Source: Acaryochloris thomasi RCC1774 (GTDB lineage: Bacteria > Cyanobacteriota > Cyanobacteriia > Thermosynechococcales > Thermosynechococcaceae). From it: a DNA stretch of 64,000 bases. A program made the translations under genes and the position numbers. The stretch covers positions 489,308 through 553,307 of the forward strand of contig NZ_PQWO01000001.1 in NCBI RefSeq assembly GCF_003231495.1, in the 5' to 3' direction. The stretch's first letter is position 1. Each line of letters starts with the position of its first letter. Shown here piece by piece: positions 3,923-57,282 of the stretch. The notes beneath the pieces are model-generated. The model was not told the DNA's origin. It made no database searches and was given only the letters and a program-made list of their open reading frames with translations.

Positions 3923-3987
3923 CAAGCTAAATCGTCCATCTGCAATGCATTCGGAAGAATACTCTAAACCGATTCAAAACAAGAACA

Positions 3988-34013: not shown

Positions 34014-34052
34014 CTGCATTCGCCCCCCGGCCCCCCAATTCTGGGGGGAGAA
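34014..34052. repeat. GC-homopolymer palindromic repeat, copy 2
   Basis: ctgcattcgccccccggccccccaattctggggggagaa. It is in direct orientation to copy 1 and inverted relative to copy 3, which lies 145 bp downstream. Confidence 0.7.
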
Positions 34053-34194: not shown

Positions 34195-34235
34195 ACTCTC
34201 CCCCCAGAATTGGGGGACTGGGGGGCAGTGCAAGA
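34195..34235. repeat. GC-homopolymer palindromic repeat, copy 3 (inverted)
   Basis: ctcccccccagaattgggggactggggggcagtgcaag, the reverse-complement orientation of copies 1 and 2. Together with copy 2 it frames a ~220-bp hairpin-capable element. Confidence 0.65.
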
Positions 34236-34744
34236 CGCTAATTGAAAGAAGGCAGCTTGAAATCATAGCGGTATACGCAAAAAGTCTTGTGTATACGTTT
34301 GCCATGCAGGCATTGCAGGGCTAATGATGATTTTCTAGCAACCCAACAGCTTATTTGGGGTGTGTATAGTCACCTGCGACAAAATGAGTACGGTGAAAAC
34401 ACGTATAAATTAGTGTTTGTTTTATTTTGAAAATGGTTGATTTCCCTGATAGCTAACGATTTTGGCTGGGCATACTTGGATACAGAGAGCCAATCATCTG
34501 CAGTATTTAAGGGGTTCAAAAAAGATAGAGCGTTCACAACAAAGGCTTTTATCTCTGGGCTGAAAAATAATTTTATTTTTCTGTCACCCAGTCAACACTC
34601 AATCTGTCTTTCTTGCCACTTGTATTGATGAAGTGACTGTTTTACAGCGGAGCTTGTTTCTAGGCCGCTGCGGTTTACTGCTGCTCTAACTTCAGTTGTG
34701 GTTCTTTCTACAAGGAGAAGCACTCTGACATTTGTGGGATCTGT

Positions 34745-34839
34745 CTCAAGCGGGGGAGTCCCAGTAGTTTTACCTTGACCTCAGCGCGGGTGAAGGAATC
34801 CAATCTGTCTGTTGTTATTTAATTTAGTTGAGACGATTT
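34745..34839 (+). promoter_or_regulatory. Conserved leader / upstream block shared by both FG-GAP–RTX paralogs
   Basis: gggggagtccca...ccttgacctc...ggtgaaggaatccaatctg...ttagttgagacgatttATG. It is conserved at 42965-43069, including a hairpin (ccttcacctc/ggtgaagg) and an identical ttgagacgatt motif ahead of the ATG. Confidence 0.45.
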
Positions 34840-37257
34840 ATGCCCTCTTTTAACGAGCAAACTGGCACCAATAATCCCTTTGACGGCATTGATGCGGGGA
34901 TTGAGGGTGATCCTACTTTGGTAGACGTAGATGGCGACGGCGACTTTGATCTGGTAGCGGGGGATAGCGACGGTGCGCTCAGATACTTTGAAAATACAGG
35001 CGGTGCCACCACCCCTAGCTATAGCGAACAAACCGGCACCAACAATCCTTTTAACGGGATTGATGTGGGAGACGATAGCTCTCCTGCTTTTGCTGATATT
35101 GATGGCGACAGCGACCTTGATCTACTAGTTGGAGGAAATAATGGTGGCGTTCAACTAGAGTATTTTGAGAATATAGGTAGTGCCACTAACCCTAGCTTCA
35201 GCGCACAGACCGGCACCAATAACCCCTTGGGCAGGCTTTCTGTGGGATATGACAACTCACCTACCTTTGCTGATATCGATGGCGATGGCGACTTTGATCT
35301 AGTGGTGGGAGATGATACCAATCAGCTCAGTTACTTTGAGAATACAGGTAGTGCCACCAGCCCAAGTTTCAGCCAGATCACCGGTACTAATAACCCATTT
35401 GAAGGTATTGGCCAGGGAATTAACAGCTCCCCCACATTGGTCGATGTGGATGGAGATGGCGACCTTGACCTAGTGGTGGGCAATGGTAACTATACACTCA
35501 GTTACTTTGAGAATATAGGTAGTGCCACTAACCCTAGCTTCAGCGCACAGACCGGCACCAATAACCCCTTTGACGGGCTTAACTTCGGAAGTGCTTTTGG
35601 CTCCGTTACACCTACTTTTGCCGATGTCGATGGTGATGGCAACCTCGATCTAGTCTCTGGCACAGGGCAATTAAGCTTCTTCGTCAGCAATGAACCAGCG
35701 ATCATTACTGGCGATATTTCAGGTGCAGTTACTGAAGACACTACCACTACAACTGCCACTGGCACACTAAACGCAACCGATGTTGACTCCAGCGCTGACT
35801 TCACTGTGCAAACTGATACTGCTGGTACATACGGCACCTTCTCTATCGATGCAGCTGGAGTCTGGACTTACACGCTCGACAACGCTGATGCTGATACCGA
35901 TGCTCTAGAAGCAGATGAAATGATCACGGATGTCTTCACTGTCGCCACAGCTGATGGCACAACTCAAGAGGTCACCGTCACTGTCACAGGTGCTAATGAT
36001 GCAGCTATCATCGCCGGCACAACAACAGGTGCAGTCACTGAAGATGACGCTATTACGACTGCGATGGGTAGCCTAATGGCCACCGATGTCGATTCCAGCA
36101 CTGACTTCGCAGTGCAAACCGATGCAGCGGGCACCTACGGCACATTCTCCATTGACGCATCCGGCAACTGGACCTACACCCTCGATAACAGTGATGCTGA
36201 TACAGAAGCTTTGGGTTCTAGTGACACTGTTACAGATGTGATCACCGTTGCTACTGCCGATGGCACGACTCAAGATATCACCATCACCATCGATGGCAAT
36301 AGTGATACCGTTCAAATCGGTACTCCTGGCCCCGATCTAATTGTGGGAACCCCCCTCGACGATACTCTAGAAGGCTTAGATGGCAACGATCGCATCCGTG
36401 GCCTTAACGGCAACGACCTCATCTTGGGCGGCAACCACAGTGACACCCTCTTTGGCGACGGCGGCAACGATTCCCTCTTCGGCGGCAACGGCATCGACCG
36501 ACTGTTTGGCGGCAACGGCAACGATTCCCTCAACGGTGGCAACAACAACGACACCCTCTCAGGCCAAGGTGGCGACGATACGCTCTTGGGCGGCAGCGGC
36601 AACGATATTCTCATCGGTGCTGCAGGCAATGACCTCCTGCAAGGCGGACTCGATAACGATCGCCTCGTCGGTGGCAGCAATGACGACAGGCTGTTTGGCC
36701 AAGCAGGTAACGATACTCTGATCGGAGCTAGCGGCCTCGATTCTCTGGTCGGCTCCGCAGGCAATGACCTTCTACAAGGGGGCACTGGCAATGATTCCCT
36801 CAACGGCGGCAACGACAACGATGTGCTCGAAGGTCAAGGTGGCTTCGATATCTTAATCGGTGCCAGCGGCGACGACCTGCTCGTAGGTGGTTCTAACGAT
36901 GACACACTCACAGGCGGCACTGGGTCTGATACATTCCGATTTGACGTTGGCTTCAACAGCCTCGGCCTTGATACGATTACAGACTTCGCTAGCAATGATG
37001 TACTGGAGTTAAGCCAGTCTGTCTTTGGGCTGATGGGTGCCATCGGTGGCGTCATCGATGTGAGTGACTTTGCAAGCGTTAGCTCTTTTGCTGAGGCCGA
37101 AAGCAGTGGCGCAGCGATTGCTTACAACAGTAATGACGGTAGCCTCTATTTCGATGCCAACGGCGCTGCAGCCGGATTTGGCAACGGCGGCGGTCAGTTC
37201 GCTCAGCTAGAGAACGCCTTCGACCTCCAAGCCAACCAGATTGAATTGATTGCCTAA
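34840..37257 (+). CDS. Secreted-type repeat protein: 5 FG-GAP/VCBS-like propeller repeats, 2 VCBS (TIGR01965-like) domains and RTX nonapeptide Ca-binding repeats (T1SS-substrate architecture)
   Basis: No N-terminal signal peptide. There are five ~57-aa repeats (NPFDGI...FADIDGDGDLDLVVG...YFENTGSAT.PS). Two ~100-aa modules follow (GAVTED...DVDSS.DF.VQTD.AGTYGTFSID.AG.WTYTLDN). Then come many GGxGNDxL-type repeats (GGNGNDSLNGGNNNDTLSGQGGDDTLLGGSGND) and an acidic Gly-rich C-terminus ending ...QIELIA. The start is taken at the ATG at 34840; the track used an upstream TTG. Confidence 0.85.
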   Translation: MPSFNEQTGTNNPFDGIDAGIEGDPTLVDVDGDGDFDLVAGDSDGALRYFENTGGATTPSYSEQTGTNNPFNGIDVGDDSSPAFADIDGDSDLDLLVGGNNGGVQLEYFENIGSATNPSFSAQTGTNNPLGRLSVGYDNSPTFADIDGDGDFDLVVGDDTNQLSYFENTGSATSPSFSQITGTNNPFEGIGQGINSSPTLVDVDGDGDLDLVVGNGNYTLSYFENIGSATNPSFSAQTGTNNPFDGLNFGSAFGSVTPTFADVDGDGNLDLVSGTGQLSFFVSNEPAIITGDISGAVTEDTTTTTATGTLNATDVDSSADFTVQTDTAGTYGTFSIDAAGVWTYTLDNADADTDALEADEMITDVFTVATADGTTQEVTVTVTGANDAAIIAGTTTGAVTEDDAITTAMGSLMATDVDSSTDFAVQTDAAGTYGTFSIDASGNWTYTLDNSDADTEALGSSDTVTDVITVATADGTTQDITITIDGNSDTVQIGTPGPDLIVGTPLDDTLEGLDGNDRIRGLNGNDLILGGNHSDTLFGDGGNDSLFGGNGIDRLFGGNGNDSLNGGNNNDTLSGQGGDDTLLGGSGNDILIGAAGNDLLQGGLDNDRLVGGSNDDRLFGQAGNDTLIGASGLDSLVGSAGNDLLQGGTGNDSLNGGNDNDVLEGQGGFDILIGASGDDLLVGGSNDDTLTGGTGSDTFRFDVGFNSLGLDTITDFASNDVLELSQSVFGLMGAIGGVIDVSDFASVSSFAEAESSGAAIAYNSNDGSLYFDANGAAAGFGNGGGQFAQLENAFDLQANQIELIA
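35164..35228. repeat. Intragenic ~65-bp exact DNA repeat (second copy at 35507-35571)
   Basis: tttgagaatataggtagtgccactaaccctagcttcagcgcacagaccggcaccaataacccctt occurs twice inside the FG-GAP repeat region. Confidence 0.7.
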
Positions 37258-37294
37258 ACTACTGGTAACAAGTCAACTGAATAGATAAGCAAAA

Positions 37295-37324
37295 GCCAGC
37301 CGATCATGATCGGCTGGCTTTTTT
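37295..37324 (+). terminator. Rho-independent terminator after the FG-GAP–RTX gene
   Basis: Perfect palindrome gccagccgatca/tgatcggctggc followed by tttttt. Confidence 0.7.
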
Positions 37325-37538
37325 GCCTGACAAGTATCGGCTCATCTGATCCGGTAAAACCAACCGCACGATTGCGATATGGCGTAGATTTATATTTTGA
37401 CTGGGCACACTGAAAGCAAAAGAGTGAGCGCATTTTATAGAAAAGTTTGAGGCTAGCGTTCCCCTCTCATGATCAGGACATGGCTGCTTTCTATAACCTT
37501 TGACCCGCAATGACTTTATTGTTACCCCAGATTGATAC

Positions 37539-40500
37539 ATGACCGCTTCTTTGAATGAGCCACGTTTATCGAGTACTCCTGGCGGTGACGCAGGTGTCGC
37601 CGCGCCAACGTTAGAGGCTACCCATTCTGAAGGGTTCGGCCATTGGCTGCAGCAACAGCAGCTCAGTCTAGCCTTTACGACCTACCAAACGAATCGCTTA
37701 TTTTGTCTGGGCACGACACAGGCAGGGAAAATGGCGCTACATGAACGCTTGTTTGATAAGCCAATGGGCCTGTTCGCCCAGGACAATCGCCTCTACATGA
37801 GTACCCGCTATCAAATATGGCAGCTCGATAATCTGCTAAGACCCGGAGAACTGCGTCAGGGTTGCGATCTCATCTACACCCCAAAACTAGCGCACACAAC
37901 CGGCGACCTCAACGTTCACGACGTGGTTATCGACGCATCCGGCGAACTTCTGTTTGTGAATACCGACTTCAACTGTTTAGCCCGTCTCAGCCCTGACTAT
38001 AGCTTTGTACCGCAATGGCGACCGCCCTTTATCTCGAAATGGGTCGCCGAAGATCGCTGTCACCTCAACGGCCTCGCCCTGCGAGAGGGCAAACCGGCCT
38101 ACATGACCGCCTGTAGCAGCACCAATACAGCCGCCAGTTGGCGTCACCACCGGGTTGACGGCGGCGTCGTGATGGATATCCAAGCCAACGAAGTGATCGC
38201 CACGGGCCTCTCAATGCCCCACTCGCCACGCTGGTATCGCGGCAAGCTCTGGTTGCTCAATTCAGGGACCGGTGAACTCGGTCACATCGACTTCGACAGC
38301 GGTGCCTTTGTCCCGCTCACCTTCTGCCCCGGCTTCGTGCGGGGAATGACCTTTTGCGGCAACGTCGCCGTGATCGGTCTATCAAAATTGAGGTCAAAAT
38401 CTTTCACCGGTCTAGCGCTGGAAAAACGACTAACGGCAGCGGGAGATCGCCCCCACTGTGGCTTGATGGTTGTTGACCTAGAGACCGGCAACGTTTTGCA
38501 TTGGCTGCGTTTAGAGGGAGTCGTTGAAGAGCTTTTTGATGTGGTGGTGCTACCCAACGTCCGCCAGCCGCAATCTCTAGGGTTCCAGTCTGATGAAATT
38601 GAGCGGCTAGTCACCTTCCCAGAGGCTGAAGGGATTGTGGTCACAAAACCCACGGTCAAGCGCCCGAGTTTGGCAGGCAAAGCCCCCGTTGCTGGCGTAC
38701 CCCGCACCGTCTGGGATGGGCAGTCAAGCTCCTCAACGGCTTCAGTCCCGTCGATCGCTGCCGCTTTAGACTCCCTTAAGTTTCAGCACGTTTACCATCT
38801 GACACCAGAAAATCTGGCAGACTACGACGATTTCACGTTTCCGCGTCTACGGCAGCGCTGGTCACAGCAGCCTCAGCGCGGCGAGATGCTCGGCGTATCA
38901 GCGTCGGTAGAGGGCGACATGGTGGCCTTCGGTGTGGCTGAGCTGCTGCCCGATCAGTCGGCTGAGGTGATCTCGCTTTGGGTGACCCCAGAGTACCGGC
39001 AACAAAGGATCGGACAGCGGTTGATGGCAATTCTGGAGCAGAAAGTCTGCCAAGAGGGCTGCACTAAACTGTTAATCGCCTACGAGGCCACTGCCCTTAC
39101 CCAGATAGAGCCTTTATTGAAAAACTTGGGCTGGCAAGCCCTCTCTCAGAACCACACCCAGCATAGATGGCACAAAAATTTCGCACCGCAGCTTGAGAAA
39201 GAGGCACCACACCCCTTTGAGCAGGGCAAAGCCTTTGCTAAGCAAGGAGATCTAGACGCAGCCATCGCTTGCTTTACTGAGGCCCTTCGCCAACGCCCCG
39301 ACCACCTCGCCGCCTATAACCAACTGGGCAATGCCTATCAGCAGTTGGGGCAAACAGAAGATGCGATCGCAACCTATCAAGCCCTCTTAGAACGCAATCC
39401 CAACGTCGCGCAGGCCCACGCCAACCTAGGGGCGATCTGGCAGATTCAGGGGAAAACGGGAGATGCGATCGCATCCTATCAAACCGCCATTGCCCTCAAG
39501 CCCGACTTAACCGTAGCCCATCTCAATCTAGCCAAGCTGCACGCAACAGCAGGCCAGCAAAAAAACGCTGCAGTGCATTATCAAGCGGCCCTTGCAGCCG
39601 ATCCCCAACAAGTAGAAGCCCACTACGGCCTTGCCAAGGTATCGCTGACTCAGGACCATTTAGAGCAGGCAAACGCCTGTTTTCGGCAGGTTTTAAAGCT
39701 CCAGCCGGAACACTCAGCCGCTCTATTAGAGCTAGGCTTTTTGTCTGAGGCCCAAGGGCAACTAGCGGTTGCTCGTGCCTGCTACCAGAAGCTATTTAAT
39801 ACCTGCCTAGAGTGGCAGCATTTAGCCGCTTACCAGCTTAGCTATGTGCGGCGGCAGCTTTGCAACTGGCAGCACGACGATGCGCGTATGACAGAGCTAC
39901 TGCAGCGCCTTGAGACGCACATTGCTCAGACCGACAGTCCTGCCCTCGCCCCCTTGAGCCTGAGCGTTTTCCCCGCATCGCCAGCATTGCATCGGGCCGT
40001 GAACGAACACCACGCAGCGCAGATTCAGCGACGCATGGCCGAGACTAAAGAACGATGTCATTTCCAGCATCCTCAGGGGCCTGTCGATAAACTGCGGATT
40101 GGCTACGTCTCGCCTGATTTCCGCAATCATCCGGTGGGCTGGCTGATGCAAGATTTGTTTCAGTACCACGACCGCGATCGCTTTGAAATCTTTGCCTATA
40201 GCCTCCGCCATGCCGAAGATTCAGTGCAGGCCAACATTGAGGCCGGGTGCGATCATTTTATCGACTGCTCCCAGCTATTGCCGGAAGAGAGTGCTCACCG
40301 CATTCATGCTGATGGCATTCATATTTTGATTGATCTAGCGGGTTACACCACCTATTCTCGACCTGAGATTTTTGCGCTGCGTCCCGCACCAATTCAGTGC
40401 AGCTATTTAGGCTATCCCGATACCACCGGTTCAGAGAGTATCGATTATCTGATCACCGATGAGTGGGTCGTGCCGCCTGCATTGGCAGCTCACTGTACTG

Positions 40501-41198
40501 AGCAGGTGGTCTACCTACCGCATCAGTTTGTGGTATCGCCAACATTCGCAGAGTCTTGTTTGCCAAAGGCCGAGATAGATCAAGAGGTACTAAAACAAGG
40601 GAATTTAAAGCAGACCCGCCAGGACTATGGTTTACCTGCAAAGGGGTTTGTGTTCTGTTGTTTTAATCTCCATCGCAAGATCGAACCGACGGTGTTTTCG
40701 GTGTGGATGAAGATTTTGCAGCAGGTACCAAACTCAGTGCTTTGGCTCTCAGATGGGCCAGACCCGGTCAAGGTGAATCTGCGTCAGGCCGCCCAGGCTC
40801 ATGGGGTTGCGGCAGAGCGATTGATTTTTGCCCCTCGGCTCCCCTTTGACGAATACTTAGCCCGCTATCAATTTGCTGATTTGTTTCTGGATACCTTCTC
40901 CTATGGAGCGGGTTCGACCGCAATCTGCGCGCTCTCTGCAGGAGTACCTTTGTTGACCCATCCAGGCGAGACCAATGCCTCACGGATGGGGGCCAGCATT
41001 TGCGCGGCAGCGGGCTTAGAAGACTTGCTGATTTGCGACAGCATATTGACCTACGAACAAAGGGCTGTGCATCTTGCAACTCACGCAGAAGAGATGGCGA
41101 CCCTACGGCAGAAGTTACGCGGCAATCGCAGCAATTTACCGCTGTTTCAACCCCAGCAATGGATCTCTCACTGGGAAGAAACGCTAGAGAAACTCTGA
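37539..41198 (+). CDS. Multidomain O-GlcNAc-transferase-like (GT41) protein: N-terminal beta-propeller-like domain (DUF4915/TIGR03032-like by recollection), then GNAT acetyltransferase, TPR repeats and a GT41 catalytic domain
   Basis: The GT41 region aligns strikingly with eukaryotic OGT as I recall it. Our LRIGYVSPDFRNHPVGWLMQ matches OGT [20 protein letters not shown]; our VPNSVLWL is identical; our PGETNASRMGAS matches PGETLASRVAAS. TPR repeats run (AAYNQLGNAYQQLGQTEDAIATYQ...) x~6. A GNAT core (Q/RxxGxG/A-like RIGQRLMAILEQ) lies at ~aa 450-520. The N-terminal ~380 aa have repeated strand-rich blades. Confidence 0.85.
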   Translation: MTASLNEPRLSSTPGGDAGVAAPTLEATHSEGFGHWLQQQQLSLAFTTYQTNRLFCLGTTQAGKMALHERLFDKPMGLFAQDNRLYMSTRYQIWQLDNLLRPGELRQGCDLIYTPKLAHTTGDLNVHDVVIDASGELLFVNTDFNCLARLSPDYSFVPQWRPPFISKWVAEDRCHLNGLALREGKPAYMTACSSTNTAASWRHHRVDGGVVMDIQANEVIATGLSMPHSPRWYRGKLWLLNSGTGELGHIDFDSGAFVPLTFCPGFVRGMTFCGNVAVIGLSKLRSKSFTGLALEKRLTAAGDRPHCGLMVVDLETGNVLHWLRLEGVVEELFDVVVLPNVRQPQSLGFQSDEIERLVTFPEAEGIVVTKPTVKRPSLAGKAPVAGVPRTVWDGQSSSSTASVPSIAAALDSLKFQHVYHLTPENLADYDDFTFPRLRQRWSQQPQRGEMLGVSASVEGDMVAFGVAELLPDQSAEVISLWVTPEYRQQRIGQRLMAILEQKVCQEGCTKLLIAYEATALTQIEPLLKNLGWQALSQNHTQHRWHKNFAPQLEKEAPHPFEQGKAFAKQGDLDAAIACFTEALRQRPDHLAAYNQLGNAYQQLGQTEDAIATYQALLERNPNVAQAHANLGAIWQIQGKTGDAIASYQTAIALKPDLTVAHLNLAKLHATAGQQKNAAVHYQAALAADPQQVEAHYGLAKVSLTQDHLEQANACFRQVLKLQPEHSAALLELGFLSEAQGQLAVARACYQKLFNTCLEWQHLAAYQLSYVRRQLCNWQHDDARMTELLQRLETHIAQTDSPALAPLSLSVFPASPALHRAVNEHHAAQIQRRMAETKERCHFQHPQGPVDKLRIGYVSPDFRNHPVGWLMQDLFQYHDRDRFEIFAYSLRHAEDSVQANIEAGCDHFIDCSQLLPEESAHRIHADGIHILIDLAGYTTYSRPEIFALRPAPIQCSYLGYPDTTGSESIDYLITDEWVVPPALAAHCTEQVVYLPHQFVVSPTFAESCLPKAEIDQEVLKQGNLKQTRQDYGLPAKGFVFCCFNLHRKIEPTVFSVWMKILQQVPNSVLWLSDGPDPVKVNLRQAAQAHGVAAERLIFAPRLPFDEYLARYQFADLFLDTFSYGAGSTAICALSAGVPLLTHPGETNASRMGASICAAAGLEDLLICDSILTYEQRAVHLATHAEEMATLRQKLRGNRSNLPLFQPQQWISHWEETLEKL

Positions 41199-42058
41199 GA
41201 TCTGTTCTAAGACAGGAAAGTCCCCATCGTGCTGCCTTCATCTTTTTGGGCCGCTTCACGGAGAATGCGGCCCATCTTAATTGAGGGGAATTGAAGAATG
41301 GAGACGGTTGCGATCGCATCGATCAACCGCTGTCTCTCTCATCAAGAACAGGCCTACTCTCACATAGATTATCCCGCAATGTCTTCATTTGCTTAGACCG
41401 CACAGCTCCAGATCAGTAAGCTATCAAGCCTGCGATATGACATCAAAAGAAATCAGCCGTCCGTCAGACACGATCAGGCGACAAGAAACTTAAAACGATA
41501 GCCATTGCGTTTTTGAAGATTGCACCACGAGGCTGAAACGCTTACCCCAAGCCACAAAAAGCAAAACAGAAGCTGTACCAGCAGAAAACAGCTTGGAGAA
41601 ATCCTGTATGTTTTTAAGTCTTATTTTATTGAGCTATAAACACTCAGTTATTATCATCCTAAATACTAGGTATAACGCTGTAACCCTTGCTCTACAAAAG
41701 TGATAGTTAACGCTCGAATATTTCTGCTCCAGAAATTCAGGTTTTTTTGTATGCTTTGATGTTCTACTTTGTTGGTTTCAAAAACAACTTTCGCATGATG
41801 TTGGCATACCTCAGAATCACATCTAGGCAATAAAAACGTGTCTAAAAACAATAGAAGCATGATGAGATGGAGTTCTACAAAAAATATTTCCAGAGAAATT
41901 TTGTATATTTTCGCGTTTGTTTTTGCTTACCGCTACGTGTTGAATTCCATTGTTATACAAAGTTTTTAGCTGGGTACACTCAATTTCAGACAGCTTAATA
42001 ATTTAAATTTCAAAATTCTATATAGACTTCTTCTTCTGCCAGTTGCTCGGATTTATTT

Positions 42059-42980
42059 ATGATTGCGTCTTTGAACCCGCAACGTTTACTGAACGTTGTG
42101 AAATTCTCCGCTGACGATAAAAATTTCGAACCCCCAGCTATAGCCTCCCAGCTAAAAGTGACTCATTCTGAAGGGTTACCCAATGGGTTACAGCATCAAG
42201 ACCTGAATGTAGCTTTTACCACTCATCAAACCAACCGTCTTTTCTGCGTGAGTCTCGTCCAGAAGGACGTATAAACAATGCGTGAACGCTTGGTTGACAA
42301 GCCGATGGGTCAATTTGCCCAGAATAATTGCCTCTGCATGAGTACTCGCCATCAGAAGTGGCAGCTCGATCATTTGCTAAGGGCACGAGGGTTGCGTCAG
42401 AGTTGCGATCGCATCTATATCCCTGAACTGGCTTACACGACCGATAACCTCAAAATCCGTGAAGTGGTTCCATCTGAGTCTGTCGAACAACAGATGTTGC
42501 GGCAGGTTCCGGGAGCAGCGCTATTGCTCTTTGATAGGACAAACTCAGTCAAGGTCAACGTGCGCCAAGCCGCACGCGCCCAGGAGCTTGATCCTGACCA
42601 ACTGATCTTTGCTCCTCAGCTACCCTTTAACGAATATTTAACCCGCTATCGCTGTTCGGATCTGCTCCTAGACGCCTGCACCTACAGGGTCGGTTCGACG
42701 GCGATTGCACTCTCAGCCTGGTTGCCGTTGCTCACCCATCCTGATGCATCACAAACGGAAGCCAGTATCTGCGCAGCGGCGGGTTTCAAAGATTTGCTCA
42801 TTTGTGACAGTGCTGTTGCTTATGAGCAAAAGACAGTCCATCCTGCCACTCATGCAGGTGGGATGGCTGCCATATAGCGGAGATTATGCGAAAACTGCAG
42901 CAGGTTTACCGCTATTCCAACCCCAGTCGTGGATTTTCTACTTGGAAGAGTCTCCTGGGAAGCTCTGGGATCTGTCTTAG
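42059..42980 (+). pseudogene. Decayed, internally deleted copy of the GT41 multidomain gene (N-terminal ~130 codons and C-terminal ~170 codons remain, in frameshifted pieces)
   Basis: MIASLNPQRL...VTHSEGLPNGLQHQDLNVAFTTHQTNRLFC matches MTASLNEPRL...ATHSEGFGHWLQQQQLSLAFTTYQTNRLFC. ...LIFAPQLPFNEYLTRYRCSDLLLDACTYRVGSTAI...ICAAAGFKDLLICDS... matches the GT41 C-terminus. Three short ORFs lie in different frames. Confidence 0.75.
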
Positions 42981-43069
42981 GACGGGGGAGTCCCATCGCT
43001 TTTCCTTCACCTCAACATAGGTGAAGGAATTCAATCTGTTCTTCATTAAATTATTAGTTGAGACGATTA
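42965..43069 (+). promoter_or_regulatory. Conserved leader / upstream block, copy 2 (see 34745-34839)
   Basis: gacgggggagtcccatcgcttttccttcacctcaacataggtgaaggaattcaatctg...ttagttgagacgattaATG. Confidence 0.45.
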
Positions 43070-44863
43070 ATGCCCACCTTTAACGAACAAACCGGCACCA
43101 ATAACCCCTTTGATGGGATTAATGTTGGAAGTGACAGCCACCCTACCTTTGCCGATATTGATGACGATGGGGATCTTGATCTACTGATCGGGGACTTTTC
43201 CGATGGCATTCTAAACTTCTTTGAGAATACGGGTAGTGCCTCTAGCCCCAGCTATGTTGAACAAACCGGCACCAATAACCCTTTCGACGGTATTTCTAGA
43301 AGTGAAAGCACCCCCACCTTTGCCGACATTGATGGCGATGATGATCTTGATCTGGTTATTGGACAATCCTTCGGTGGCCTGAGTTTCTTTGAAAATACAG
43401 GCAGTGCCACTAGCCCTAGCTACATCGAACAAACTGGCACTGATAATCCTTTCCCTAGCGTTGGTTCAAACGATAGCAACTCTCCCTTCTTTGCCGATCT
43501 TGATGGCGACGGTGATCTCGATCTAGTCACGGGAGATGGCAATGGCACGATAAACTACGTTGAGAACACGGGCAGTGCCACTAGCCCCAGCTACATCGAG
43601 CAAACCGGCACTAACAATCCCTTCGATGGGTTTAATGTAGGCTTTGAAAGCCAACCGGTCTTGGCTGATGTTGATGGTGATGGCGACCTTGATCTAGTTG
43701 TTGGGGCTGGCAGTGGCACAATCAATTTCTTTGAGAACACAGGCAGTACAACCAGTCCCAACTACATCGAGCAAACCGGCACTAGCAATCCCTTCGATGG
43801 GTTTAATGTGGGGGGTGAAAGCCAACCTGTCTTGGCTGATGTTGATGGTGATGGCGACCTCGATCTAGTTGTTGGAAATGGCCCTGGCACAATCAATTTC
43901 TTTGAGAATGCCGGGAGTCCCAATGGCGCGACCCCTGGTCCAGATCGCCTTTCAGGAACCCCTGATGACGACACTTTAGAAGGCTTAGATGGTCGAGATC
44001 GTCTCAATGGCCGAAATGGCAATGATCGCATCGTAGGCGGCAATGGTAGTGACACCCTCCTGGGTGAAGGTGGTAACGATACCCTCTTCGGCGGCAGCGG
44101 TATCGACCTCCTCTTTGGCGGTAACGGCAATGACTTTCTTAATGGGGGCAACAATAACGACACGCTGCAGGGCCAAGCGGGAGACGATACTCTTCAAGGC
44201 GGCAGCGGCAACGATATATTGATTGGCTCAACAGGAAGCGACCTGCTTCAAGGGGGACTCGACAACGACTTCCTGAGTGGGGGGAGCGACAACGACACGC
44301 TGGTCGGCCAAGCCGGAGATGATACTCTCCTAGGCGGAAACGGACTCGATCGTCTGATCGGCACTGCAGGTGATGACCAACTAAGGGGTGGCTTCGGCAA
44401 CGATACACTTAACGGCGGCAACGACAACGATGTGCTCGAAGGTCAAGCTGGTTCTGATCGCTTGATTGGCGGCGGCGGTGACGACATTCTCGTCGGTGGC
44501 TCCAGCGATGACACACTTGTAGGTGGAGTCGGGTCTGATACGTTCCGATTTGGCGGTGGCTTCAACAGCCTCGGCACCGATACGATCATAGACCTTACCA
44601 GCGATGATGTAATGGAGTTGAGTCTGTCTGTCTTTGGTCTGACAGGTGCCATCGGTGACATCATCGATATGAGCGAGTTCGCCAGCGTCAGCTCTCTGGC
44701 TGACGCCGAAAGCAGTGGTGCATCCATCGCTTACAACAGCAATGATGGTAGCCTCTACTTCAATGCCAATGGCGCTGCAGCAGGCTTCGGTACTGGCGGT
44801 CAGTTCGCTCAGCTCAACAATACCTTTGACCTCCAAGCCAGTCAGATTGAGTTGATTGCCTAA
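43070..44863 (+). CDS. Paralogous FG-GAP/VCBS-like propeller + RTX repeat protein (lacks the two VCBS modules of the first copy)
   Basis: Five FG-GAP-like repeats then RTX nonapeptides (GGNGSDTLLGEGGNDTLFGGSGID...). The C-terminal ~110 aa are near-identical to the first paralog, ending QIELIA. There is no signal peptide. Confidence 0.85.
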   Translation: MPTFNEQTGTNNPFDGINVGSDSHPTFADIDDDGDLDLLIGDFSDGILNFFENTGSASSPSYVEQTGTNNPFDGISRSESTPTFADIDGDDDLDLVIGQSFGGLSFFENTGSATSPSYIEQTGTDNPFPSVGSNDSNSPFFADLDGDGDLDLVTGDGNGTINYVENTGSATSPSYIEQTGTNNPFDGFNVGFESQPVLADVDGDGDLDLVVGAGSGTINFFENTGSTTSPNYIEQTGTSNPFDGFNVGGESQPVLADVDGDGDLDLVVGNGPGTINFFENAGSPNGATPGPDRLSGTPDDDTLEGLDGRDRLNGRNGNDRIVGGNGSDTLLGEGGNDTLFGGSGIDLLFGGNGNDFLNGGNNNDTLQGQAGDDTLQGGSGNDILIGSTGSDLLQGGLDNDFLSGGSDNDTLVGQAGDDTLLGGNGLDRLIGTAGDDQLRGGFGNDTLNGGNDNDVLEGQAGSDRLIGGGGDDILVGGSSDDTLVGGVGSDTFRFGGGFNSLGTDTIIDLTSDDVMELSLSVFGLTGAIGDIIDMSEFASVSSLADAESSGASIAYNSNDGSLYFNANGAAAGFGTGGQFAQLNNTFDLQASQIELIA

Positions 44864-44900
44864 ACCATTTGCAATTGAGTCAATTGAATAAATAAAACTA

Positions 44901-44936
44901 GGCCAACAGATTAACGATGAATCTGTTGGCCTTTTT
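44901..44936 (+). terminator. Rho-independent terminator after the RTX paralog 2
   Basis: ggccaacagatt-aacgatg-aatctgttggcc followed by ttttt. Confidence 0.7.
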
Positions 44937-50750: not shown

Positions 50751-51332
50751 CCCAACAAAATCGCTCAAGACTTGAACCATTGAGTCTATAAATAAAATCT
50801 AAATATACTTGCCGTTCCAGGACTAATAGCGATACTGTATCCTTAGCTATCTGTTCGATAGACGTATAAGGTGCTGGAACATGCTTTCAGTCCTGAATGT
50901 CATTGAGCAATAGGATTACCTTAAAGAAATTAAGCTTTAAGGGTTGAGGGTGTTATCTGAGACATTATCAGCATCAATGACTGGCATACAGTTGGGGGTA
51001 TGGCAATTAGTCATTGTCTTCAAATAGGGGTGTTACCAAGTTATTTAAGCTAATCCAACGTCCAAGTGGATAAGGCAGTTGAGCAGTCTCTCAATCTGCT
51101 TTTTACACAGATGGTTCAAGTTTTATAAGCATAGCTACACAGCAGGCAGTCTTATTCCTGCTGTCTTGACCAGGAGAACTTATTGCTGTTCTCCTCGGTT
51201 CCTTTATTCTTGTGCACTGACTTAAGGTTGATGCGCGTAGGCTCTGCTGTCCACAGGCTGAAAAGTATGGGGGTGAAGAGCCTACGCGGCAGAATTTCAT
51301 GCTGTGAGTTTTTTCTATCGAGGTCTAAGTTA

Positions 51333-53768
51333 ATGACTGACATATTCAGTTCTGATTTATTTGACTCTGCTCCCAAGAGCATCATGGGGCAGAGCAACTT
51401 AAGCGCAGAAACAGTTGAGGTAGAAGAAGCCTCTTCAGGTCTAGAGTTTCGCTCCATCAACGGTTCTGACAATAATGATACAAATACAGGCGTCACCGGC
51501 GAGCAACTTTTGCGCCTCTTCACGAATGCTTTTGAAGACGGTATCAGTACACCACGTGGGGGAGACTTTCCCAATCCCTTCGATCCCTCAAGTCCGCCTT
51601 CATCCCTTCCCAATCCTCGTACTATCAGTAATACAATCGCTGCTCAATCAGAGTCAGTCTCTAATTTTCTGAATGCCAGTGATTGGATATGGCAGTGGGC
51701 ACAATTCATCGATCATGACCTCGATTTAAACGAGTCAACCGCAGACAACCCTGGTGAATTCACACCCATTGTGGTTCCAAATGGCGATCCCACATTCTCT
51801 GATGGAACATTTCTGCCCTTTTTGAGAGTAGGGGCTTCAGAAGGAACCGGCATCAATAATCCCCGCCAGGCCGACAATCTAATTACCAGCTTTATTGATG
51901 CTTCCAGTGTGTATGGCTCTGATGAAGAGCGGGGCGACTTTTTACGTTCCTTTGCAAATGGGCAGCTCAAATTCTCAGAAACCAACAATGGCGAAGTCCT
52001 CTTGCCAGAGAATCCTGATGAAGGAACGGGAGAAAGGCAAGAAAATGCCACAGGTGGAACCCTCGGTGACTTCCAGTATGTTGCCGGAGATATTCGAGCG
52101 AATGAGCAAATTGGCTTAACAGCAGTTCACACCTTGTTCGTGCGTGAACATAATCGTCTTGCGGCAGATCTTCTTGACCGCCTAGAAGCAGGTGAAGCAG
52201 CATTAGTCGAAAAGTTTGAGCAGTTCACAGAGACCAGCGACGAAACAGATAGCGATGCTCTGCAGGATGAGTTTATTTACCAAGCAGCCCGCAAGGTTGT
52301 AGGGGCCAAGATCCAGCAAATTACCTATGATGAATTCCTACCTCTGTTGATTGGTGAAGGAACAACAGCAGAGTACGACGGCTATAAATCTGATGTGCTG
52401 GCATCCATCAGTACAGAGTTTGCTAATGCAGCCTACCGTGTGGGTCACACCTTACTATCGGATCAAATACAGCGCCTGAGTACAAATGGCCTCAGCGAGA
52501 TTGCGTTAGGCGATGCTTTCTTTATCCCCGAACAAATCAAAGACGAGGGCGTTGATTCAACCCTACGCGGTTTAATCCTCCAAGCTTCACAAGAGGCAGA
52601 TAATCTTGTCATTGATGGGGTGCGGAACTTCCTATTCGAGGCAGGGACCGGAGGGCTTGATCTAGCCTCTGTAAATATTGCAAGAGGGCGTGATACCGGC
52701 TTACCTGGCTATGTTGAAGTCTATGAAGCCCTTTTCGGCACCAGCATCGATAGCTTTGATGATCTCGGATCTTCGGGCCTAGGGCTCATAGCAGATGATG
52801 TCGTTGCTCTCTTTGAAGAAGCTTATGAAACAGTCGACCAAATTGACCTCTGGATTGCAGGCATCTCTGAGCAGGCGGATGATCATGGTGGTCTTCTTGG
52901 CCCAACCTTTAGCGCTATCATTGCTGAGCAGTTTGCTCGAACGCGTGATAGCGATCGATTCTTCTATCTCAATGAGCTAGAAGACATCCAGTTATTAGAT
53001 CCTGATTTCGCCAATACCAGTCTTTCTGAGGTACTGCGTGGCAACACTGAAGAGGGCTATCTCATTCAAGACAATGCCTTTGACGTTCCCTATGAAAATT
53101 CAGTCGTCGGGAATGAATCGAATAATATTTTGTTAGGAACTAACGTTGCTGATTTAATCGATGGCAAAGAGGGACGCGATTTTATCATTGGTCGTCGGGG
53201 TGACGACATTCTCTTAGGCGATGCCGGTAATGACGTGCTCATGGGCGGTCAAGGAAATGACACCGTTCTAGGCGGACTTGGACAAGATCGTATCCTCGGT
53301 AGCCTCGGTAACGATGTGCTTCTGGGGGGGGATGATAAGGACATCATCAGTGGTGGCTCCGGGAACGACACTGTTTCAGGAGGTAACGGTAATGATCGGC
53401 TATTGGGCATTCGAGGGAATGACTTGATTCTAGGTAATGCTGGCAACGACTTACTTGCAGGTGGCGGGGGGGCTGATTCCCTGGAAGGTGGAGTTGGTAG
53501 CGACACTCTTCGGGGTGGAGCAGCATCCGACACCTTCATATTCAGTGATGATATCCTCAATGATGGCGTATCTGATACAGACACAATCTGGGGTTTCCAG
53601 CGCTTTGATAGCTTTGATTTTACCGAGTATAGTGGCTCCATTGACTTTAATCGAGTAAGCAGACGACTGCTAGAGATTGAACTCAATGGTGGTGAAGATA
53701 CCATCAATATATTTGGCAGTCGCGCTGGATTGAATGCAGCACAGACGCAACTTTCAGAGCGAGCCTAG
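51333..53768 (+). CDS. Animal-heme-peroxidase-family (peroxidase-cyclooxygenase superfamily) enzyme fused to C-terminal RTX Ca-binding repeats ('peroxicin'-type), paralog 1
   Basis: Distal His region WQWAQFIDHDLDL and proximal region RANEQIGLTAVHTLFVREHNRLA. The C-terminus has GDDILLGDAGNDVLMGGQGNDTVLGG... repeats and ends ...LLEIELNGGEDTINIFG. There is no signal peptide. Start taken at the ATG at 51333. Confidence 0.85.
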   Translation: MTDIFSSDLFDSAPKSIMGQSNLSAETVEVEEASSGLEFRSINGSDNNDTNTGVTGEQLLRLFTNAFEDGISTPRGGDFPNPFDPSSPPSSLPNPRTISNTIAAQSESVSNFLNASDWIWQWAQFIDHDLDLNESTADNPGEFTPIVVPNGDPTFSDGTFLPFLRVGASEGTGINNPRQADNLITSFIDASSVYGSDEERGDFLRSFANGQLKFSETNNGEVLLPENPDEGTGERQENATGGTLGDFQYVAGDIRANEQIGLTAVHTLFVREHNRLAADLLDRLEAGEAALVEKFEQFTETSDETDSDALQDEFIYQAARKVVGAKIQQITYDEFLPLLIGEGTTAEYDGYKSDVLASISTEFANAAYRVGHTLLSDQIQRLSTNGLSEIALGDAFFIPEQIKDEGVDSTLRGLILQASQEADNLVIDGVRNFLFEAGTGGLDLASVNIARGRDTGLPGYVEVYEALFGTSIDSFDDLGSSGLGLIADDVVALFEEAYETVDQIDLWIAGISEQADDHGGLLGPTFSAIIAEQFARTRDSDRFFYLNELEDIQLLDPDFANTSLSEVLRGNTEEGYLIQDNAFDVPYENSVVGNESNNILLGTNVADLIDGKEGRDFIIGRRGDDILLGDAGNDVLMGGQGNDTVLGGLGQDRILGSLGNDVLLGGDDKDIISGGSGNDTVSGGNGNDRLLGIRGNDLILGNAGNDLLAGGGGADSLEGGVGSDTLRGGAASDTFIFSDDILNDGVSDTDTIWGFQRFDSFDFTEYSGSIDFNRVSRRLLEIELNGGEDTINIFGSRAGLNAAQTQLSERA

Positions 53769-54717
53769 ACTAAAGAGCTTCAGCAAGCCCTTTAATCTAT
53801 CTGAAGCTCGTCTTTTAAGACTACTCTTTTTAAGAAGCCTCAAAGCCTATCTCTTTGAGGCTTCTCGCATATGTCAATCATGCAAAACCAATTCTATACA
53901 TCACAGAAACAGAGAGTTGAAGCGCAGAATAGATTAAACAAGTGCCTAATCGCTAGTTTTGAAGTTCATGTTTACTCAATTTTGCCTTTAATTATTGATA
54001 GAGATTAACCTCAGCTTGACTTGAGCTGTTTGAAGTTCCATTTACACTAAACTCTGGGACTATCTACAGAAGGTATTCAGACGCTGGGATTTCACCAAGA
54101 CTGACAATATAGGATTGCCTAAGTAAGGCTCCCTCCTTGCTCTCTCAGTAAAGTTCAGGATGAAGCCAAGCCTGAACAAGCAGTCAGTCACAACAAAATC
54201 TAAATTTACTTGCCGTTCCAGGGTTGATGAGGTTAAGCTAATTTTAGATTCAAGCTAAAGTACAAAACAGTATTGGAACTCTTTTCCATTTTTTGCAGTC
54301 TTTAGGACTACTGCTGCTTTGAATTCTAAGGGTGTTATCTGACAGACCATTCATATCCATGGTGGTTTATCAATTGGGGATATGGCTACTAGCCATTTGT
54401 TTTTCCAGTGTTATTTCAAAGCTGTTGAAGCTAGCCTTCAGGCACAGCATCTGAGATTTACGGGGGTTATCTCAGCTTGCTTCTGAAAGCAAAGTTTAAA
54501 TTTTTACAAACGTAACTTAAGCAGAATACTAACTTTTGGTTAGTGATTTGCTGATGCGGGAAGAACCTATCGGTGTTCTTTTCATGTCTTTACTTTTGCG
54601 AGTTGATGCCAAGTAAGTGCATCTAAATCTTGCTGTCTGAGTTTTGAAAACTCTGGACGGAGAGTTTGACTCGTTTATTCCGTGTTGTGAGTTCTTTATC
54701 TTTTGAGGTTTAAATTA

Positions 54718-57208: not shown

Positions 57209-57282
57209 GGGGCTGTGGCTCAGATGGATAGAGCAAGCGCCTCCTAAGCGCTAGGTCGGCGGTTCGAATCCGCCCAGTCCCG
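57209..57282 (+). tRNA. tRNA-Arg (anticodon CCU)
   Basis: I folded this 74-nt sequence by hand into a cloverleaf. The acceptor GGGGCUG/CAGUCCC has one G-U pair. D-stem is GCUC/GAGC. The anticodon stem AGCGC/GCGCU carries loop CUCCUAA. T-arm is GGCGG-UUCGAAU-CCGCC. The discriminator is G, and no CCA is encoded. Confidence 0.85.

Follow-up and report, generated by a model that had tools for sequence, protein, structure and literature searches.

Recurrent pairing of DUF4915 enzyme genes with FG-GAP exoprotein genes at a tandem locus of Acaryochloris thomasi and in other bacteria

The window, a 64,000-nucleotide stretch of the Acaryochloris thomasi RCC1774 genome, contains three tandem units built on the order enzyme gene, spacer of ~105 nt, FG-GAP gene (Table 1). 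Two of the three enzyme copies have decayed, and the intact one, GT1, has no downstream partner of its own.

Table 1. Features of the tandem locus, with positions in the window
Feature	Position	Strand	Description
psiGT-A	34560..34745	+	Probable decayed 3' remnant of a GT41 enzyme gene, upstream of RTX1
Spacer/5' leader	34746..34839	+	Enzyme stop codon to FG-GAP start codon; conserved, aligns with 42966-43069 upstream of RTX2
RTX1	34840..37257	+	805 aa; ATG at 34840; exact match to PZD74996.1
Hairpin after RTX1	37291..37322	+	Intrinsic-terminator-like; 14-bp G+C-rich stem, then T-run
GT1	37539..41198	+	Intact ORF, 1219 aa, multidomain enzyme; PZD74981.1/WP_110984467.1, "TIGR03032 family protein"
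DUF4915/TIGR03032 domain of GT1	37614..38615	+	aa 26-359; six-bladed beta-propeller
GNAT acetyltransferase domain of GT1	38766..39152	+	aa ~410-538; acetyl-CoA loop R-x-x-R-x-G
TPR region of GT1	39201..39818	+	aa ~555-760; multiple TPR Pfam models; aligns with human OGT TPRs
OGT-type GT41 catalytic domain of GT1	39858..41177	+	aa 774-1213; no metazoan intervening domain
AT-rich noncoding stretch	41199..42058	.	Expected place of GT1's own downstream FG-GAP gene
psiGT-C	42059..42965	+	Pseudogene of a second enzyme paralogue (tblastn); keeps the parts equivalent to GT1 aa 1-136 and 1017-1219
RTX2	43070..44863	+	597 aa; five FG-GAP_3 repeats plus RTX; no signal peptide; exact match to PZD75027.1
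Hairpin after RTX2	44900..44932	+	Terminator-like; 13-bp stem, then TTTTGT

The psiGT-A remnant is recognizable over its last ~60 to 190 nt only, and its tblastn match was not significant. It aligns colinearly with the 3' ends of GT1 and psiGT-C in a three-way alignment, and the psiGT-C 3' end plus spacer matches positions 34672-34860 by blastn (74.6% over 193 nt, E = 1e-27). The spacer that follows holds an imperfect hairpin, CCTTGACC...GGTGAAGG. Position 34745, from which the original prediction counted the RTX gene region, is no gene start: 34745-34839 is spacer, and RTX1 begins after it. The psiGT-C pseudogene has ~50% identity to GT1, an internal deletion of ~2.6 kb and frame changes, and its DUF4915 and GT41 fragments lie inside a single 199-aa ORF (Pfam). 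Beyond the GT1 stop codon, homology to the spacer continues for ~60 nt and is then lost; a tblastn search of the AT-rich stretch for FG-GAP or RTX remnants found none, and the closest relative has an identical layout.

The ancestral unit is an enzyme gene upstream and an FG-GAP gene downstream, and RTX1 goes with the decayed enzyme copy on its 5' side. The pairing of RTX1 with GT1 that had been proposed is not confirmed, since a strong terminator-like hairpin separates the two genes. This element, in the 281-nt gap, was listed on the minus strand by the scan; it is palindromic, and TTTTTTG follows on the plus strand. Because of the hairpin and T-run, RTX1 and GT1 are probably not cotranscribed. 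The region may well represent a two-gene module, widespread elsewhere, that has been triplicated here and has partly decayed. The locus is also rearranged, with pseudogenes and a MITE-like repeat nearby.

A search of GT1 for a signal peptide or transmembrane segment found neither (maximum KD19, 1.49). All four domains that had been read from its sequence, including the TPRs, are present. The N-terminal propeller scores 446 and 469 bits against the DUF4915 and TIGR03032 models (Pfam and NCBIfam), making GT1 a full-score member of TIGR03032 (cutoff, 251.5 bits). This is a catalogued family of ~2,400 cluster representatives without an assigned function, and a literature search for DUF4915 or TIGR03032 found no paper mentioning either. 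Its invariant polar residues include TYQ, HD, D-x-CHLNG, MPHSPR, RG, E and D, and His, Cys, Asp, Arg and Glu residues remain invariant across clades at 33% identity, the pattern expected for an active site. The nearest folds are the ligand-binding YWTD and NHL propellers. The GNAT domain is of the Acetyltransf_1 type (aa 429-513, 39 bits versus a cutoff of 20.7, Pfam), with RimI-like or acyl-CoA N-acyltransferases as closest PDB relatives, and the first Gly position of its motif A is occupied by Arg in GT1 and by Gly in 38 of 41 homologues.

The C-terminal domain scores 321 bits against Glyco_transf_41 (Pfam) and contains the OGT-like motifs originally quoted: LRIGYVSPDF at 852-861, VPNSVLWL at 1063-1070 and HPGETNASRMGAS at 1141-1153. 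Human OGT (hOGT) is the top solved relative (E = 1.7e-147 over the full length and 1.1e-83 for the catalytic part), ahead of XcOGT (4.5e-62), SPINDLY (4e-38) and NGT (3e-6), the last three for the catalytic domain. Like the GT41 OGTs (human OGT, Xanthomonas XcOGT, S. elongatus Ogt and Nostoc punctiforme OgtA), GT1 is cytoplasmic, places TPRs before a GT-B GT41 catalytic domain and retains equivalents of hOGT D554, H558 and K842 (D860, H864 and K1047), of which the catalytic His and Lys are invariant across its family. It differs from them in its additional N-terminal DUF4915 propeller and GNAT domain, from metazoan OGT in having no intervening domain, and in several residues that contact UDP-GlcNAc in hOGT (H498 to L806, Q839 to L, K898 to F, H901 to Y and H920 to G), replacements that leave the sugar donor, and even activity, uncertain. 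Contrary to what had been supposed, the architecture is not unique: the DUF4915-GNAT-TPR-GT41 order occurs in dozens of cyanobacteria, at 40 to 78% identity in Calothrix, Nostoc, Anabaena, Cyanobium, Synechocystis and others.

RTX1 is, as predicted, an RTX/VCBS protein without a hydrophobic N terminus or signal peptide. It comprises four to five FG-GAP_3 repeats (aa 1-280), two VCBS/Cadherin_4 modules (aa ~284-488), ten RTX repeats (aa ~493-727) and a C-terminal segment of ~80 aa (Pfam, NCBIfam). RTX2 is its paralogue (60 to 74% identity) and has no VCBS modules. RTX1 is highly acidic (131 D+E versus 8 K+R) and contains no cysteine, and lysine is absent from both proteins, ruling out classical N-epsilon acetylation of either.

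Linkage of the two genes is strongly conserved in other genomes. An FG-GAP_3 gene adjoins 11 of 12 DUF4915-GNAT loci and 4 of 67 other loci (Fisher P = 1.7e-9). With classical FG-GAP queries added to FG-GAP_3, an FG-GAP gene lies within 5 kb at 35 of 80 DUF4915 loci, on the same strand in 34 of the 35; about half of the 80 have no FG-GAP neighbor at the threshold used, and 519 kb of more distal flank contained no independent FG-GAP gene. The linkage extends over cyanobacteria, Nitrosomonas, methanotrophs, planctomycetes, Myxococcota and Desulfocapsa. Same-strand cassettes, with genes 12 to 280 nt apart or overlapping, occur in Dapis, Chroococcus, Dolichospermum, Cyanobium, Synechocystis salina, N. 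punctiforme, Nitrosomonas (twice), Methylocucumis, Massilia and one JGI metagenome contig, and Nostoc calcicola has two tandem units, like this window. Searching in reverse from the FG-GAP region of RTX1, DUF4915 was present in all of the best 5 metagenomic loci. The remaining neighbors are unrelated, so the module consists of exactly two genes. Each of three DUF4915 clades is paired with its own FG-GAP repeat subtype, indicating that the two have codiversified, and in one case a single ORF fuses DUF4915 to FG-GAP repeats.

These cassettes always combine DUF4915 with FG-GAP repeats; GNAT, TPR-GT41 and RTX may be missing. Most proteobacterial cassettes have an enzyme gene without GT41, and some consist of DUF4915 alone (~355 aa) followed by the FG-GAP gene, with no recognizable transferase. 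Several partner proteins have no RTX repeats, and FG-GAP repeats are present in every conserved partner. Since many cassettes do without GT41 and GNAT, glycosylation cannot be the core function of the module. DUF4915 is fused to members of the GT41, GT2, sulfotransferase and fucosyltransferase Pfam families, and these repeated fusions suggest a role in a modification pathway.

The recurrent pairing points to an unstudied system that probably modifies FG-GAP/RTX proteins before export. GT1 is most likely a dedicated maturase for neighboring FG-GAP proteins (probability about 0.5). The first gene of the module codes for a cytoplasmic protein with the DUF4915 propeller as its constant part, joined in this clade to GNAT and, in many cyanobacteria, to TPRs and an OGT-type GT41 as well; the second, usually directly downstream on the same strand, codes for a signal-peptide-less FG-GAP protein, usually with RTX repeats at its end, whose export presumably depends on a type I system with genes elsewhere (the window contains no T1SS ABC or MFP gene). 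GT1 would modify RTX1 and RTX2 before export, while they are still unfolded in the cytoplasm, the one intact enzyme serving both paralogues in trans. The propeller, the TPRs or both may recognize the FG-GAP region, GT41 may add an O-linked sugar to Ser/Thr, GNAT may acetylate a non-lysine target (a sugar amine or the N terminus), and DUF4915 may contribute a further catalytic step. Counting against this model are the terminator between RTX1 and GT1, the missing partner downstream of GT1, the dispensability of GT41 and GNAT, the replaced UDP-GlcNAc contacts, the Arg in GNAT motif A, the absence of lysine from RTX1 and RTX2, the DUF4915 loci that showed no FG-GAP neighbor and the absence of T1SS genes from the window. 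The original prediction is partly supported: its core, a cytoplasmic modifying enzyme functionally coupled to a nonclassically secreted repeat protein, passes the two computational tests proposed with it (conserved linkage and catalytic Lys/His equivalents), and its gene order, conserved partners and type of GT41 need revising.

To our knowledge, the only well-known enzymes dedicated to modifying type I secreted RTX proteins in the cytoplasm are the toxin-activating acyltransferases of RTX toxins, HlyC, CyaC and ApxC, which are encoded beside their substrates, have a GNAT-like fold and acylate internal lysines from acyl-ACP. RTX1 and RTX2 offer no such lysines, the GT1 GNAT is instead of the Acetyltransf_1 type and is missing from many cassettes, and no HlyC-family match was found (Pfam). 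The arrangement had been thought undescribed for RTX proteins, but the cyanobacterial Ca2+-binding nonapeptide-repeat exoproteins oscillin (Phormidium) and SwmA (Synechococcus WH8102) are reported to be glycosylated (PMC3034196). Substrates of such a kind therefore exist; what is undescribed is the enzyme responsible and DUF4915 itself, and the systematic pairing of DUF4915 with FG-GAP exoproteins is apparently unreported. We know of no glycosyltransferase assigned to oscillin or SwmA, nor of FG-GAP repeats in either.

Foremost among the alternatives, though unlikely, is that enzyme and FG-GAP protein share a cell surface process in which the latter is not the substrate, with GT1 glycosylating pilin or other proteins or building a glycoconjugate as ligand for the secreted FG-GAP protein. 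TPR-OGTs are typically multisubstrate, FG-GAP propellers are ligand-binding modules, and GT1 is probably a transcription unit of its own. Known cyanobacterial GT41 enzymes modify PilA: in S. elongatus, ogt adjoins pilA and is needed for PilA glycosylation (PMC9306852). There, too, the enzyme gene lies beside that of an exported substrate, which is also a precedent for the maturase model, but the gene linked to GT1-type enzymes encodes an FG-GAP/RTX protein and no pilin. Against this alternative, the linkage is tight, on one strand, often overlapping and independent of other glycan synthesis genes, and codiversification together with the fusion protein argues for a direct protein-protein relationship.

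Next in probability, and also doubtful, DUF4915 could be a noncatalytic chaperone or export adaptor, dedicated to holding the Ca2+-dependent FG-GAP propeller unfolded in the cytoplasm or handing it to the type I exporter, with GNAT and GT41 as opportunistic additions having other or minor targets. Cassettes with DUF4915 alone, the physical interaction suggested by the fusion, the kinship to ligand-binding propellers and the clade-specific pairing would all suit a binder, the last as well as it suits an enzyme. However, the motifs invariant in very divergent clades (D-x-C-H-L-N-G, M-P-H-S-P-R, H-D, E and D) resemble an active site more than a binding surface, and the repeated transferase fusions suggest involvement in a modification pathway.

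The model first proposed, HMW1C-like N-glycosylation of N-x-S/T in the RTX nonapeptides with acetylation of the RTX protein, is very improbable. HMW1C and HMW1 resemble GT1 in logic, as a dedicated cytoplasmic glycosyltransferase (likewise GT41) beside a large, nonclassically handled surface protein modified before export; HMW1, however, is two-partner secreted. NGTs glycosylate Asn in N-x-S/T and have no TPRs. The GT41 domain of GT1 lies far from their branch, with 285 bits to OGT versus 30 to 35 bits over ~105 aa to NGT structures; with the NGT/HMW1C model (NCBIfam) it reaches 34 bits, where the cutoff is 1,000. Being OGT-like, it leaves the sequon argument unsupported. RTX1 has 10 sequons, 6 of them within the RTX block, but its density of 1.24 per 100 aa is ordinary, on a par with an unlinked peroxidase-RTX protein in the window (1.16). 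GNDT and GNDS are ordinary RTX consensus. RTX repeats are, in addition, absent from several conserved partners and FG-GAP repeats from none, and there are no lysines to acetylate.

Meaningless adjacency, through chance or hitchhiking within a duplicated island, would fit the rearranged state of this locus but is strongly disfavored by the neighborhood statistics, with 35 loci having a proximal FG-GAP gene and 0 an independent distal one, a nearly uniform strand orientation, and pairing in many phyla and unrelated genomic contexts.

Genes encoding DUF4915 (TIGR03032) domains and genes encoding FG-GAP proteins without a signal peptide form a conserved pair. We put at roughly one in two (0.5) the probability that GT1, the intact enzyme of the window, is a maturase that modifies the paralogous FG-GAP/RTX exoproteins RTX1 and RTX2 in the cytoplasm before export. 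The genes concerned and the domains of GT1 are listed in the table.

Genes of the locus and domains of GT1 (nucleotide positions in the window; aa, residues of GT1)
Feature	Position	Strand	Description
RTX1	34840-37257	+	805 aa; exact match PZD74996.1
GT1	37539-41198	+	1219 aa; exact match PZD74981.1
GT1 DUF4915/TIGR03032 domain	aa 26-359		profile match
GT1 GNAT domain	about aa 410-538		profile match
GT1 TPR region	about aa 555-760		TPR models; aligns with the TPRs of human OGT
GT1 GT41 domain	aa 774-1213		Pfam Glyco_transf_41, two stretches
psiGT-C	42059-42965		dead second enzyme gene; tblastn of GT1 against the window
RTX2	43070-44863	+	exact match PZD75027.1; 60-74% identical to RTX1

DUF4915 motifs, used as seeds against the GTDB species representatives, returned 80 loci. 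A module was defined as a DUF4915 gene at most 5 kb from, and on the same strand as, the gene for an FG-GAP protein lacking a signal peptide. When both FG-GAP types were used as queries, 35 of the 80 loci proved to have an FG-GAP gene no more than 5 kb from the DUF4915 domain (26 of the 51 in which both flanks reach 3 kb or more). Of these 35 genes, 34 share the strand of the DUF4915 gene and 23 lie downstream of it, bearing out the expectation that the linkage is conserved in other genomes. No independent FG-GAP gene was present more than 5 kb away in any locus (519 kb of distal flank). The FG-GAP_3 subtype adjoins 11 of the 12 DUF4915-GNAT loci with usable flanks, as opposed to 4 of the 67 other loci (P = 1.7e-9, Fisher exact test). 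Among the immediate neighbours of standalone DUF4915 genes, classical FG-GAP (PF01839) repeat proteins are the single large cluster (Pfam); RTX repeats are present in 6 of the 7 examined, and the N-termini inspected have no leader.

Gene maps show same-strand cassettes, with genes 12-250 nt apart or overlapping, in Nostoc calcicola (two tandem units, as in the window), Dapis, Chroococcus, Dolichospermum, two Nitrosomonas, Methylocucumis, Massilia and one cyanobacterial MAG, with the gene order inverted in Gomphosphaeria and Desulfocapsa. The enzyme in the proteobacterial cassettes consists of DUF4915-GNAT only (~490-520 aa), without TPR or GT41. Exact-protein look-ups recovered further cassettes in Synechocystis salina, in Nostoc punctiforme (39-nt gap), on a JGI metagenome contig and in Cyanobium sp. 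CZS 48M, where the FG-GAP gene (L081 188-1693) and the enzyme gene share 4 nt and the former encodes a Hint_2 (intein-like) domain in place of RTX repeats. The module is present in 4 of 5 further loci looked up (L081, L083, L084 and L166, the exception being L165, from the closest relative), and its hosts include cyanobacteria, Nitrosomonas, methanotrophs, planctomycetes, Myxococcota and others. Additional conserved neighbours, sought in the Nitrosomonas, Desulfocapsa, Massilia and Synechocystis cassettes, proved to be unrelated genes of glycogen metabolism, MoxR or unknown function.

The reverse test, a metagenome scan seeded with the FG-GAP region of RTX1, yielded 80 loci, with DUF4915 beside all five of the best and in 12 overall; one more locus has TPR-GT41 genes only, raising the loci with an enzyme-domain match to 13 of 80. 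Variants among them include DUF4915-only cassettes, separate TPR-GT41 genes beside an FG-GAP gene, and a single ORF (L086 4202-6548, contig Ga0272444_10014024) in which a DUF4915 domain is followed by FG-GAP repeats, a fusion that could be natural or an artefact of assembly or frameshift. In a neighbour-joining tree, 97 DUF4915 domains fall into three clades, each with its own FG-GAP repeat subtype. The partner proteins have only the FG-GAP repeats in common, RTX repeats being absent from 4 of the 8 examined. What is conserved is the pairing of DUF4915 with a signal-peptide-less FG-GAP protein, to which particular lineages have added GNAT, TPR-GT41 and other transferases as accessories.

The window itself, from Acaryochloris thomasi RCC1774, contains the module more than once. 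The original prediction joined RTX1 and GT1 as one pair, but the locus comprises three tandem units: a probable decayed 3' remnant of an enzyme gene (psiGT-A) followed by RTX1, GT1 in the middle, and the pseudogene psiGT-C directly upstream of RTX2. psiGT-C retains residues 1-136 and 1017-1219 of GT1 at ~50% identity; its interior is partly deleted and its frame changes. A conserved spacer of ~105 nt separates the enzyme stop from the FG-GAP start in the RTX1 unit (34746-34839) and the RTX2 unit (42966-43069), and upstream of RTX1 it is preceded by the decayed enzyme 3' end (74.6% over 193 nt, E 1e-27). The spacer has no Rfam family match and contains a short hairpin (CCTTCACC...GGTGAAGG) that may be a leader or processing element. 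Spacer homology extends ~60 nt past the GT1 stop; the next 860 nt are AT-rich and non-coding, and no FG-GAP gene remnant was found downstream of GT1. Co-transcription of RTX1 and GT1 is improbable, given a strong terminator in the 281-nt gap between them, a 14-bp G+C-rich hairpin with a T-run 3' of RTX1 (37291-37322); RTX2 has its own terminator downstream.

The shared spacer, the enzyme remnants and the placement of the partners show the ancestral unit to be enzyme gene, spacer, FG-GAP gene and terminator. RTX1 is the partner of a lost upstream enzyme copy, and GT1 is the sole intact enzyme of the window, its own FG-GAP partner having been lost. The closest relative (77% protein identity) lacks the RTX1 unit and has the same order of enzyme gene, AT-rich stretch, enzyme remnant and next gene, indicating that the state of the GT1 locus is not a recent accident. 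Upstream, between a hydrolase gene and the decayed enzyme remnant, is a MITE-like element: the 18-nt palindromic G/C-run motif CCCCCCAATTCTGGGGGG occurs three times (32832, 34031 and 34200), with none expected by chance, and two copies form a 30-nt inverted repeat (34022-34051 and 34197-34226, 93% complementary) flanking a 145-nt segment.

The C-terminal half of GT1 is OGT-like, as originally proposed. Glyco_transf_41 scores 321.5 bits (cutoff 25; Pfam), and human OGT is matched at E 1.7e-147 by the full-length protein and at 1.1e-83 by its catalytic half, which also matches XcOGT (4.5e-62), Thermobaculum OGT (1e-44) and SPINDLY (4e-38). The TPR superhelix is N-terminal to the catalytic domain, as in the OGT type, and GT1 lacks the metazoan intervening domain. 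Human residues were numbered by adding 308 to the index in chain 3pe3_A, consistent with the known human OGT strings D554-F-G-N-H558 and Q839-L-Y-K842. On this numbering, D860 and H864 (within DFRNHP) and K1047 (within NLHRKIEP) align with D554, H558 and K842, so that equivalents of the catalytic or UDP-binding Lys and of the His are present as anticipated, and H864 and K1047 do not vary in 22 full-length homologues. Several UDP-GlcNAc contacts of the human enzyme are replaced (H498 by L806, Q839 by L1044, K898 by F, H901 by Y and H920 by G), T921/T922 become S/T, and R904 is kept; because of these differences the donor cannot be taken to be UDP-GlcNAc. By membership GT1 is assigned to the OGT type of GT41, and protein glycosyltransferase activity is predicted.

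The N-terminal domain matches TIGR03032 over model positions 2-334 of 335 (469.3 bits, cutoff 251.5) and PF16261 (DUF4915) at 446 bits. The family numbers about 2,400 sequence clusters; we found no solved or characterised relative, and a literature search returned no paper mentioning it. Clades just 33% identical share invariant polar residues (T-Y-Q, H-D, D-x-C-H-L-N-G, M-P-H-S-P-R, R-G, E and D), a pattern that looks like an active site. DUF4915 is fused elsewhere to GT2, sulfotransferase (PF00685), NodZ-like and GT11 fucosyltransferase, and GT1-like domains (protein matches such as P0013, P0043, P0077, P0084 and P0086), and this variety suggests that the propeller is a recurring part of modification enzymes. 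Contrary to what had been supposed, the architecture of GT1 is not unique: dozens of cyanobacterial proteins have it at 40-78% identity, and in variants GT2, sulfotransferase or fucosyltransferase domains are added or substituted.

Acetyltransf_1 matches the GNAT domain of GT1 at 39.2 bits (cutoff 20.7; Pfam), and the predicted structure has an alpha/beta GNAT-like domain at residues 413-530 (pLDDT 80-95). Motif A (residues 483-488, window 38985-39002) reads R-Q-Q-R-I-G against the acetyl-CoA pyrophosphate loop pattern Q/R-x-x-G-x-G/A. The first Gly position, the fourth residue, is Gly in 38 of 41 aligned homologues and Arg in GT1, so acetyltransferase activity may be impaired in A. thomasi.

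The candidate substrates have the features of RTX type I substrates: both carry tandem Ca2+-binding nonapeptides towards the C-terminus and lack an N-terminal signal peptide. RTX1 begins with five FG-GAP_3 repeats (~58 aa each) at its very start, followed by two VCBS/Cadherin_4 modules, ~24 RTX nonapeptides and a tail of 80 aa. The HemolysinCabind score is 148 bits for RTX1 (10 stretches) and 227 bits for RTX2 (12 stretches). Both N-termini are hydrophilic, without a hydrophobic leader. RTX1 is strongly acidic (131 D+E versus 8 K+R) and contains no Cys, and neither protein contains Lys. Both are presumably exported by a type I route; the large ORFs examined in the window include none for an ABC transporter, a membrane-fusion protein or TolC.

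Two known systems also encode a dedicated cytoplasmic modifier beside a secreted substrate, HlyC with HlyA and HMW1C with HMW1, and GT1 resembles both by analogy. A HlyC-type system, or any lysine acetylation or acylation, is excluded by the complete lack of Lys in RTX1 and RTX2, and GT1 has no HlyC-family Pfam match. HMW1C-like N-glycosylation of RTX sequons is rejected on the domain scores and on ordinary sequon density. The GT41 domain is remote from the HMW1C/NGT branch, with 30-35 bits over ~105 residues: the NGT equivalog model NF049992 has a cutoff of 1000 bits and reaches 34.2, and the NGT structures 3q3e, 8j30 and 8p0o match only ~105 C-terminal residues (E 3e-6 to 6e-8), leaving GT1 outside the NGTs. 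RTX1, described as dense in N-x-S/T, has 1.24 sequons per 100 aa and 6 in the RTX block, close to the 1.16 found for one of the window's peroxidase-RTX proteins, which is unlinked. A third likeness is to the GT41 enzyme Ogt of S. elongatus, needed for PilA glycosylation and encoded beside pilA (PMC9306852).

For GT1 as a maturase, the absence of a signal peptide or membrane segment, together with the cytoplasmic cofactors that GNAT and GT41 need, means that any action on the FG-GAP protein must precede export. We infer that the FG-GAP protein is the substrate. In this model GT1 acts on RTX1 and RTX2 in the cytoplasm, recognising and modifying their FG-GAP region: the GT41 domain would O-glycosylate it, and acetylation of an acceptor other than lysine would fall to the GNAT domain and an additional step to DUF4915. 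The original observation is thus partly confirmed, and its interpretation, that the enzyme modifies the adjacent RTX protein, partly supported. The broader proposal, that DUF4915/TIGR03032 is a new enzyme or dedicated chaperone on which all FG-GAP beta-propeller exoproteins lacking a signal peptide depend for cytoplasmic maturation in the host groups named above, is more tentative, and we regard it as somewhat doubtful.

We know of no maturation enzyme for FG-GAP/RTX exoproteins, including the glycosylated RTX surface proteins, and the two-gene module supplies a directly testable candidate while giving a biological context to an orphan family. The claim that such modification is undescribed for RTX proteins is only partly right, since SwmA and oscillin are glycosylated cyanobacterial RTX proteins (PMC3034196); what is new is the candidate enzyme and the general DUF4915/FG-GAP module, with a realistic chance of a new enzyme family. 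Literature searches for GT41 combined with type I secretion gave nothing specific, and those for the swmA gene neighbourhood nothing informative. Cyanobacterial gliding and swimming depend on glycosylated RTX surface proteins (PMC3034196), and few cyanobacterial exoproteins are more abundant than FG-GAP/RTX proteins, which have been tied to plant symbiosis, as with Npun_R6586 (PMC5702739; PMC9620832). A TIGR03032 neighbour of Npun_R6586 was sought in the literature, where no paper naming its neighbour genes was found; the cassette is present in a different N. punctiforme assembly. If the broader proposal is correct, type I secreted proteins would have a second dedicated pre-export modification system after HlyC-type acylation, and RTX-type exoproteins would for the first time have protein glycosyltransferases assigned to them, in the form of GT41 fusions like GT1, which might explain the long-known glycosylation of such surface proteins in cyanobacteria. 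The module would also take OGT-type bacterial protein glycosylation beyond pilins. The module may also bear on secreted-protein engineering in cyanobacteria and on how type I substrates are readied for export.

Elsewhere in the window, two paralogous proteins (51183-53768 and 54703-57045, both +) combine an animal-type haem peroxidase domain (440 and 497 bits) with C-terminal RTX repeats and are presumably type I secreted peroxidases. A NACHT/STAND NTPase gene (8054-10453, +) lies in a low-G+C patch (36% versus about 49% elsewhere) and may have been horizontally acquired. A HAMP-adenylate/guanylate cyclase gene precedes one encoding an MscS-type channel that carries a cyclic-nucleotide-binding domain (1826-5445, +); the two may constitute a cNMP signalling pair. 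The only Rfam match in the window is one tRNA gene (57209-57282, +).
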